A stretch of 35,428 nt of DNA from a virus (Duplodnaviria; Heunggongvirae; Uroviricota; Caudoviricetes): IMG/VR virus record IMGVR_UViG_2923360383_000002. One strand, given 5' to 3'. The first letter of the stretch is position 1. The number at the start of each line of letters is the position of its first letter. This document shows positions 24,672-24,981 of the stretch, piece by piece. The translations under genes were made by a program, and so were the position numbers. Under the pieces are notes generated by a model. It searched no databases and had not been told where the DNA came from. It saw only the letters and a list, made by a program, of their open reading frames with translations.

Positions 24672-24746
24672 TGGAGCGGGCAGCGGGAATCGAACCCGCA
24701 TCATCAGCTTGGAAGGCTGAGGTAATAGCCATTATACGATGCCCGC
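24672..24746 (-). tRNA. tRNA-Gly (anticodon UCC), glyT-like
   Basis: Hand-folded cloverleaf; GCGGGCATCGTATAATGGCTATTACCTCAGCCTTCCAAGCTGATGATGCGGGTTCGATTCCCGCTGCCCGCTCCA with encoded CCA. Confidence 0.85.
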
Positions 24747-24749
24747 ATA

Positions 24750-24825
24750 TGGTGCCGACTACCGGAATCGAACTGGTGACCTACTGATTACAAGTCAGTT
24801 GCTCTACCTACTGAGCTAAGTCGGC
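24750..24825 (-). tRNA. tRNA-Thr (anticodon UGU), thrU-like
   Basis: GCCGACTTAGCTCAGTAGGTAGAGCAACTGACTTGTAATCAGT...GGTAGTCGGCACCA; anticodon loop CTTGTAA. Confidence 0.85.
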
Positions 24826-24827
24826 AC

Positions 24828-24904
24828 TGGACCGCCACCGGGGACTCGAACCTCGCACACTCAACTTAAAGGGTTGACGCTCTTTCCTGATGAGCTAGTG
24901 GCGG
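24828..24904 (-). tRNA. tRNA-like gene; anticodon UUU (Lys) by position, with atypical C33 and mismatches - possibly divergent or a pseudo-tRNA
   Basis: 7-bp acceptor stem (CCGCCAC/GTGGCGG), TTCGAGT T-loop, CCA end; anticodon loop CCTTTAA; T-stem has one mismatch. Confidence 0.45.
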
Positions 24905-24905
24905 T

Positions 24906-24981
24906 TGGTGGCCCTTGCTGGATTTGAACCAGCGACCTGGCGATTATGAGTCGCTCGCTCTCACCACTGAGCTAAAGGGCC
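24906..24981 (-). tRNA. tRNA with CAU anticodon, ileX-like (Ile2 if lysidine-modified, otherwise Met)
   Basis: GGCCCTTTAGCTCAGTGGTGAGAGCGAGCGACTCATAATCGCCAGGTCGCTGGTTCAAATCCAGCAAGGGCCACCA; resembles E. coli ileX more than elongator Met. Confidence 0.8.

Follow-up and report, generated by a model that had tools for sequence, protein, structure and literature searches.

Lambdoid and Shiga toxin (Stx) phages of Escherichia coli carry tRNA gene clusters behind the antiterminator gene Q, and the described system closest to the locus analyzed here is ileZ-argN-argO, which lies between Q and stx in 933W, Stx2a_F349 and related phages and whose published interpretation is compensation for rare codons (PMC7946995). 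A second line of work concerns the host lysine tRNA, tRNA-Lys(UUU), which is attacked by the tRNases PrrC, RloC, AriB of the PARIS system and bacterial Schlafen proteins (PMC12409363, PMC2610378, PMC11555353, PMC13056530). Here we analyze a four-tRNA array at positions 24672-24981, on the minus strand of a 35,428-nt stretch of DNA from a virus of the class Caudoviricetes (IMG/VR record IMGVR_UViG_2923360383_000002), the whole of which is referred to below as the window. The array is probably a polycistronic tRNA operon with its own promoter, which a lambdoid E. coli prophage carries as cargo in its moron site, the interval from Q to the lysis genes, and three of its members probably serve codon supply.

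In the 35.4-kb window, ARAGORN identified four tRNA genes and no more, each of them on the minus strand. Rfam RF00005, with a gathering score of 29 bits, recovered every one of them with E-values from 2e-8 to 1e-16, far beyond chance. In the order of transcription, which we use to number the slots of the array from 1 to 4, these are a CAU tRNA of the tRNA-Ile2 type, a predicted lysidine-bearing reader of AUA (24906-24981, 72.5 bits); a tRNA with the anticodon UUU and C33, called Lys by ARAGORN (24828-24904, 44.4 bits); tRNA-Thr(UGU) (24750-24825, 73.8 bits); and tRNA-Gly(UCC) (24672-24746, 64.9 bits). Each gene encodes its own CCA end, and the spacers between the genes measure 1, 2 and 3 nt. 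The initial annotation, drawn from the sequence alone, had proposed four minus-strand tRNAs within 24672-24981, coordinates that prove exact, and its statement that they are closely spaced also holds, the spacers themselves being 1, 2 and 3 nt and not the 2-3 nt it gave. It had left the fourth tRNA unnamed, which proves to be the gene with the UUU anticodon, C33 and an argN-lineage body, and it had missed both the homology of the array to the Stx-phage cluster ileZ-argN-argO and its wide prior annotation.

The window is a lambdoid prophage, the right two-thirds of which are 99.4% identical to the prophage adjacent to serU/mtfA in E. coli 94EC. Along the late strand, the genes follow the order QueH, hok/sok, DUF968, RusA, Q, an island of three open reading frames (ORFs) on the opposite strand, and the tRNA array, after which come a P21-type holin, DUF1327, lysozyme, Rz, a P27-type terminase, an HK97-type head and a lambda-type tail. 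The array is flanked by the profile matches of Q (PF06530, 26862-27230) and of the holin (PF04971, 24165-24380), in agreement with its earlier placement between the island and the holin, and its location within a prophage adjoining serU, with Q on one side and the lysis cassette on the other, upholds the proposal that it is phage cargo. It occupies the classical moron site from Q to the lysis genes, the same site that holds ileZ-argN-argO and stx in Stx phages.

Transcription of the array appears to be directed by a sigma-70-type promoter of its own, consisting of the -35 hexamer TTGCAA (25014-25019) and the -10 hexamer TATTAT (24991-24996), both on the minus strand and recognized by a consensus scan together with a footprint across related loci. 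The two hexamers are 17 nt apart, and a G+C-rich stretch of 9 nt, CCTGCGCCC, joins the -10 hexamer to the first tRNA. The consensus match of TTGCAA-17-TATTAT, 9 of 12 positions, carries no weight by itself: the scan of the region returned 3 promoter-like sites, against 5.6 expected from shuffled sequences. The evidence comes from conservation. Five diverged upstream versions, representing about 115 related loci, all keep the TTG of the -35 hexamer, TATTAT, the 17 nt between the hexamers and the distance to the tRNA, and the bases of the spacer differ among them, which is the phylogenetic footprint of a working promoter. TATTAT is unchanged in all 14 upstream versions listed (113 loci), and the 9-10 nt between the -10 hexamer and the 5' end of the tRNA in related loci equal the distance found at K-12 ileX. 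Moreover, the promoter core is identical in phages with four different Q genes, Stx phages among them, which argues for an autonomous promoter and rules out that the conserved element is a Q-dependent, Q-specific pR'. By this footprint we consider the promoter real and infer its activity; the initial annotation had listed it as a candidate. A second promoter-like site, TCGGCA-16-TATAAT, lies inside the Thr and Gly genes and was rejected as a by-product of the D-arm sequence of glyT, and a 59-codon, TTG-started ORF on the plus strand at 24915-25094 of the window, antisense to the CAU tRNA and the promoter, is almost certainly spurious.

At its other end, the array is followed by a structured trailer of 291 nt (24381-24671, minus strand), extending from the Gly gene to the start of the holin and identified by its fold and its conservation in the Stx phage phi467. 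It contains three long hairpins, followed by CGCCCGUUUUUGCGG and a U-run about 60 nt ahead of the holin ATG, and its predicted fold of -90.4 kcal/mol (z = -3.9) was matched in stability by 0 of 200 shuffled sequences. The trailer is more than 98% identical in phi467 and travels with the Thr-Gly-holin module; it may act as the end of the operon (a terminator), as a late leader or as an RNA element. In the mechanism that we propose, the conserved promoter would start transcription a few nucleotides ahead of the first tRNA, and host RNase P and the 3'-processing enzymes would release the four tRNAs from the precursor. From its position between Q and the holin, the array should also receive read-through from late transcription after induction, which would add to its output.

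The three members to which codon supply is attributed all have a 7-nt anticodon loop, U33 and a purine at position 37. The mature Thr(UGU) and Gly(UCC) tRNAs match K-12 thrU and glyT, respectively, with 100% identity along their whole length. The CAU tRNA, which PGAP labels tRNA-Ile, is identical to ileZ of the Stx phage Stx2a_F349; 6 of its positions depart from K-12 ileY and 8 from ileX. Its positions 28-42 are identical to those of ileX and ileY, and it keeps the acceptor pairs C4:G69 and C5:G68, which Ikeuchi et al. reportedly described in 2005 as determinants of TilS. These features indicate an ileX/ileY-like AUA reader of the tRNA-Ile2 type, with conversion to lysidine predicted. The earlier identification of glyT and thrU copies beside an ileX-like tRNA is thereby made precise, the first two as exact copies and the third as ileX/ileY-like. 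One sister array in IMG/VR (L175) has UAU instead of CAU in its ileZ-like first slot and would not need lysidine to read AUA; this is in keeping with AUA decoding as the selected function of the slot.

To relate the array to codon usage, one ORF-calling procedure was applied to the window and to 50 kb of K-12 core genes. The phage genes use AUA at 7.0 per 1000 codons against 2.5 in the K-12 sample (ratio 2.8), ACA at 12.9 against 5.5 (2.35) and GGA at 13.3 against 6.2 (2.2), a 2.2- to 2.8-fold enrichment of the three codons that the initial annotation had connected with the array. The host has one or two genes for each decoder of AUA, ACA and GGA; in K-12, one thrU and one glyT were found in the operon region, together with both ileX and ileY. 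Ile2(CAU), Thr(UGU) and Gly(UCC) would thus raise the dose of host-compatible decoders of A-ending codons, and a dose effect of extra host-identical or host-like copies on a promoter of their own is plausible.

Several observations weigh against this reading, which we nevertheless judge the probable one for the three genes. The enrichment of AUA, ACA and GGA is modest and the host gene sample of 50 kb is small; genome-wide K-12 usage, as in the Kazusa tables, would give values nearer 1.6-1.8-fold. The rare codons most over-used in the window, namely AGA (5.3-fold), AGG (7.9-fold) and CGG (4.5-fold), are served by no member of the array, unlike in sister arrays, which carry Arg(UCU). AAA is not rare and not enriched (36.9 per 1000 codons in the window against 33.2 in the K-12 sample, ratio 1.1), and five identical host tRNA-Lys genes were found; the host has six tRNA-Lys genes, so codon supply does not explain the UUU tRNA. 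The phage Thr, Gly and slot-2 copies vary between prophages, and constraint on them is not strict. Finally, the scan of the region did not locate the late promoter pR' relative to the island, and the island and a hairpin at 26845-26826 intervene.

The array itself is of a known kind, a compositional variant of the Stx-phage ileZ-argN-argO cluster that is already widely annotated. At a coverage of 80% or more, the 501-nt block that contains it is present in at least 372 of the 5426 complete E. coli genomes. Many of these copies are 100% identical, with PGAP annotations of tRNA-Ile, -Lys, -Thr and -Gly, and the block also occurs in the deposited phages vB_EcoM-606R7, vB_EcoS-689R5 and PhiR47_1. 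Among the 120 IMG/VR loci listed, CAU-UUU-Thr-Gly is the dominant form (91 loci), followed by CAU-UUU-Arg(UCU), the form of the PPompW prophages of O157 (13 loci), and by the Stx type CAU-UCG-UCU (7 loci). The promoter, the CAU tRNA and slot 2 are common to Stx and PPompW phages; the Thr and Gly genes, the 291-nt leader and the holin are shared with the Stx phage phi467, where homology begins 4-5 nt before Thr. The array is thus a mosaic of two modules, promoter-CAU-slot 2 and Thr-Gly-leader-holin, with junctions that fall at tRNA borders. In PPompW prophages, the insertion sequence ISEc20 lies directly after the array.

The gene in slot 2 differs in character from its three neighbors. ARAGORN and PGAP name it tRNA-Lys(UUU), and of the features expected of a tRNA-Lys, the UUU anticodon is present, and Lys descent and the discriminator A73 are absent. 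It is identical to Stx-phage argN (UCG) at 65 of 77 positions and to host lysT at about 47 of 79, its body belonging to the argN/Arg(UCU) lineage and not to the host Lys lineage, and its Rfam score is the lowest of the four. Its anticodon loop, C32-C33-U34-U35-U36-A37-A38 (CCUUUAA), has seven nucleotides and A37, but C33 in place of U33, at a site where U is nearly universal in tRNAs; further marks are the discriminator U73, C1:G72, A20 and an A51.C63 mismatch. Given U73 instead of A73, together with A20 and the Arg-type body, charging with lysine is uncertain; the molecule may or may not decode Lys codons. Among slot-2 tRNAs, it is nearest to canonical Arg(UCU) forms that have U33 and in which the T stem is repaired. 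Compared with the Arg(UCU) loop of the same slot, the UUU/C33 loop carries the changes U33C and C35U, by which the slot has lost a reader of AGA in a phage that over-uses AGA. Minimum free energy folds of the single slot-2 and argN sequences gave no cloverleaf and were uninformative, and the covariance model and counts of paired positions were used instead.

The variation of slot 2 was surveyed by scanning IMG/VR for loci bracketed by the neighboring genes, with slot 2 itself left free, which yielded 163 loci. The UUU/C33 loop was found in 111 of them. A canonical Arg(UCU) tRNA on the same body, with the loop CUUCUAA, U33, a paired 51:63 and often G73, occupied the slot in 26 of the 163. A further form, which we call body2, accounted for 19 loci; its body is near invariant and has A73, and the loop between CAAC and GUUG has only 5-6 nt and changes from locus to locus (TAAAT, TTAAT, TTTAT, ATGAT, CATAGT, CCAGGT, CCAGAT, CTTGGT). 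The body2 loci are found among L135-L187 (for example L135:5527-5628, L149, L163, L184 and L187) and in E. coli MS 115-1 (L197:2501-2574); ARAGORN reports these genes, which lie between the CAU tRNA and Thr, as tRNA-???, Phe, Leu, Stop or Ser, and PGAP leaves an unannotated gap of 78 nt in their place, the variation being concentrated in the loop. Targeted IMG/VR scans recovered no other anticodon on the exact argN body, the UCU and odd-loop forms requiring the bracketed scan, and no U33 version of the UUU tRNA. C33 is invariant in all copies of the UUU form (113 and 111 copies in two counts); given the low divergence of this lineage, the invariance is not significant.

Across 34 distinct slot-2 sequences, the stems are well preserved, with 99.6% of acceptor-stem cells and 97.8% of D-stem cells paired. 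The changes in the stems include many C-to-U substitutions opposite G and no G-to-A opposite C, there is one compensatory G:C/A:U pair at 3:70, and the 51:63 mismatch is "repaired" in two different ways in relatives. Within the UUU lineage, the variants that break pairs are singletons, and the frequent variants keep pairing. Ten "unpaired" cells per pair in helix 3 are an artefact, as MAFFT shifts the 3' strand of the body2 anticodon stem by one column. Pairing kept across the family indicates that the cloverleaf is under purifying selection and that the loop is not, or is selected to change. Other figures weigh against a strong function of slot 2. Over 107 UUU-type arrays, nucleotide diversity (pi) was highest in slot 2, at 0.025; it was 0.015 in both Thr and Gly and 0.006 in the CAU tRNA. 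The slot-2 gene is present in 797 of 5426 complete E. coli genomes (about 15%), and 519 of these 797 carry copies of less than 99% identity. Two common UUU variants, one with U8C and two wobble pairs and the other with a deletion of 1 nt in the D stem, score below the Rfam threshold. Among the matches listed, PGAP annotation is missing for most copies below about 98% identity, and copies at 96-97% identity are unannotated in the E. coli genomes listed. The deletion variant belongs to the PPompW prophages of O157 (L003, LC567818.1, 3132-3207), beside which L017 is another locus with a UUU variant below the threshold. Among GTDB species representatives, the exact slot-2 sequence was found only in E. 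coli and Shigella flexneri.

What slot 2 does, if anything, can be read in more than one way. It may be a relic, an Arg(UCU) tRNA that lost its anticodon through U33C and C35U and persists as a non-decoding hitch-hiker, its tRNA shape owing to youth or to better processing of the precursor. We hold this to be a real, if minority, possibility: the nearest relatives found in this slot are canonical Arg(UCU) tRNAs, whose position 33 is U and whose T stem is repaired; C33, A51.C63 and U73 occur together in one molecule; the Rfam score of 44 bits is the lowest, and the diversity the highest, of the four genes; divergent copies are frequent (519 of 797 genomes) and, among the matches listed, mostly unannotated below about 98% identity; and the 5-6-nt loops of the sister arrays cannot decode. 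Several points speak against a relic: stem changes are nearly all pair-preserving; pair-breaking variants are confined to singletons, and the frequent ones keep pairing; the body of the body2 form stays near invariant as its loop and spacers vary, indicating selection on the body; and the UUU/C33 state is the most successful, being the commonest at 111 of 163 loci and present in 15% of E. coli genomes. Slot 2 may instead have a role in counter-defence, as a nuclease-resistant Lys decoder or a decoy that would sustain translation of AAA/AAG codons once host tRNA-Lys(UUU) is destroyed by tRNases of the host or of rival elements, such as AriB of PARIS, PrrC, RloC or Schlafen-type enzymes, the other tRNAs only adding dose; we rate this lead as rather unlikely. 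tRNA-Lys(UUU) is the commonest target of defence tRNases (PMC12409363, PMC11555353, PMC13056530), and infection can be rescued by phage variants of tRNA-Lys in cases in which the E. coli tRNA-Lys fails to do so (PMC11555353). AriB requires U36-A-A-U39-C40|A41 and U16, the change U39A abolishing cleavage and A41C or U16C impairing it (PMC12409363). Slot 2 has U36-A-A-G39-U40-U41 and C16, and so departs at all four AriB positions from the UAAUCA and U16 of the host; the tRNA-Lys of phage T5 departs at 39, 41 and 16. PrrC cuts 3' of U33 (PMC2610378), exactly where slot 2 has its invariant C33, and a natural C33 tRNA is functional in yeast (PMC13492127). The UUU tRNA, moreover, is left unexplained by codon supply, a useful UCU anticodon has been lost from the slot, and the diversification of the loop on a conserved body in sister arrays resembles an arms race. 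Against these points, the doubt about Lys charging (U73 for A73, and the A20 of the Arg lineage retained) applies here too; U33C has no effect on cleavage by gamma-toxin (PMC2275089), so that C33 need not protect; common UUU variants fall below the Rfam and PGAP thresholds for a tRNA; the invariance of C33-UUU is not significant at such low divergence; and the literature searched contained no report of lambdoid phages restricted through tRNA-Lys. The Thr copy also speaks against it, being identical to the host tRNA and bearing the AriB site, and an extra host thrU gives little or no protection from P2-OLD (PMC12445682). Considered separately as an escape tRNA for P2-OLD or PARIS, Thr(UGU) was rejected: it retains the CUG/CAG stem motif and UAAUCA and, as a host-identical molecule, is presumably cleavable. 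In its more general form, the idea would make slot 2 a fast-evolving tRNA-shaped RNA in which selection acts on the anticodon loop rather than the body, and which in the window would have been switched from Arg to Lys, with C33 at the scissile junction of PrrC, as a nuclease-proof tRNA-Lys or a decoy of temperate lambdoid phages, the body in sister arrays carrying UCG, UCU or hypervariable loops of 5-6 nt; this too seems to us improbable but not negligible.

Two further readings were weighed and carry much less. The UUU tRNA, possibly together with Gly(UCC), might modulate -1 frameshifting in the tail-chaperone genes and so set the G:GT ratio. The G gene (PF06222) ends in GTT AAA AAA AAG TAG, with an in-frame A-AAA-AAG heptamer immediately ahead of the stop, from which the -1 frame enters T (PF06223); both slippery codons are read by tRNA-Lys(UUU), and in lambda the U34 state of tRNA-Lys alters G/GT frameshifting and phage yield (PMC3296357). 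This connection is purely circumstantial, however. The tRNA is also found in prophages whose morphogenesis modules are different and beside Arg(UCU) in PPompW, only 5 loci reach as far as the G gene, too few to correlate the type of slot 2 with the type of heptamer, and the six host tRNA-Lys genes would dilute any effect; we consider it very improbable. In the window, the two genes lie on the minus strand, G at 13029-13415 and T at 12727-13017, with the heptamer at about 13038-13032. The other reading takes the whole array for host DNA, a piece of the thrU-tyrU-glyT-thrT operon acquired by imprecise excision. The Thr and Gly genes are indeed identical to thrU and glyT and stand in the same relative order, but tyrU, thrT and tufB are absent; the Thr-Gly spacer is 3 nt, where the host has 8 nt, tyrU and 116 nt; the flanks are unlike those of chromosomal thrU-tyrU-glyT-thrT-tufB and no similarity extends beyond the mature tRNAs; the array is placed mid-prophage, with Q to one side and the holin to the other, and not at an att end; and many unrelated prophages, as well as phages that were induced or isolated, carry this same module. 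Host origin of the array as such is already contradicted by these data, and we give it almost no credence. The initial annotation had likewise held, from gene order, that this is not simply a captured host operon, and a captured operon is ruled out, since only the mature thrU and glyT sequences are common to both and gene content, spacers and flanks are unrelated. As the Thr-Gly pair keeps the thrU...glyT order although no flank similarity is left, an origin from the host operon by loss of tyrU is possible. We retain a self-promoted operon with codon supply by its CAU, Thr and Gly tRNAs as the probable account of the array.

The surroundings of the array contain other features of interest. The three-ORF island (25278-26826, plus strand), located between Q and the tRNA promoter, has the orientation opposite to that of the late genes and is absent from the deposited phage collection. 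Its 293-aa ORF matches the PADLOC candidate defence family PDC-S42 (E = 4e-27) and PHROG 3243 (of unknown function) and had no Pfam or PDB match, the other two ORFs were without a convincing match, and the ORF matches showed no link between the island and tRNA. The island is very rich in AAA (62 per 1000 codons) and ACA (31 per 1000). At the end of its convergent ORF, 17 nt past the stop of Q, a G+C-rich hairpin of 8 bp with a T-rich run (26826-26845, minus strand) is probably a bidirectional terminator. A gene for QueH, an epoxyqueuosine reductase (29494-30180, minus strand; PF02677, E = 1e-65), gives the prophage a tRNA wobble-modification gene in addition to its tRNA genes. A type I toxin-antitoxin system of the hok/sok kind is also present, with sok at 29251-29426 (Rfam, 110.6 bits) and an ORF at 29101-29313 whose E. 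coli homologue is annotated HokD.

As such, the array is ordinary, another compositional variant of the tRNA clusters long known behind Q in lambdoid and Stx phages, and the part worth following up is the previously unnamed fourth gene and its lineage rather than the array. The array offers a clean natural test of codon supply, for three of its members fit and the fourth has replaced the AGA-reading anticodon that an AGA-rich phage would need. That gene joins a conserved cloverleaf to a changing and often non-canonical loop, and is aimed at Lys AAA/AAG, whose host tRNA is the one attacked by PrrC, RloC, PARIS and Schlafen. If the counter-defence reading were true, temperate coliphages would gain their first described case of counter-defence by a tRNA, one found in about 15% of E. 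coli genomes. A strategy of large virulent phages would then extend to temperate phages, which shape the genomes of E. coli, the prophages of O157 included.

Compared with the named systems, the array is nearest to the Stx cluster ileZ-argN-argO. It has the same place downstream of Q, a promoter 100% identical from the -35 to the -10 hexamer, an identical first gene (ileZ), a homologous second gene (65 of 77 positions shared with argN) and the same published rare-codon reading (PMC7946995). It departs from that cluster in the UUU/C33 loop of slot 2, where Stx argN has UCG and U33; in the replacement of argO (UCU) by the host-identical Thr(UGU) and Gly(UCC), with spacers of 2-3 nt against 13 nt; in having a 291-nt structured leader and a P21-type holin instead of stx; and in the opposite-strand three-ORF island that parts Q from the array. 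With the E. coli operon thrU-tyrU-glyT-thrT-tufB, it shares identical mature thrU and glyT and the placing of Thr before Gly, but it lacks tyrU, thrT and tufB, has unrelated spacers, flanks and promoter, and is located in a prophage. Its CAU tRNA has the anticodon stem-loop (28-42) of ileX and ileY, the acceptor stem of ileY, the pairs C4:G69 and C5:G68 and a similarly short gap from the -10 hexamer to the tRNA, and is set apart from them by 6-8 substitutions, which fall in the D loop and the T loop and at 26/27:43/44, 27:43 being A.C here and G.U there. Slot 2, finally, resembles the resistant tRNA-Lys(UUU) of virulent phages (T5 against PARIS AriB; SP15 and others against PrrC170) in its UUU anticodon, its non-host body and its altered AriB determinants at 39-41 and 16. 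It differs from them in that its carrier is temperate, its body is derived from an Arg and not a Lys tRNA, it has C33 and U73, and the Thr(UGU) that accompanies it is host-identical and presumably cleavable.

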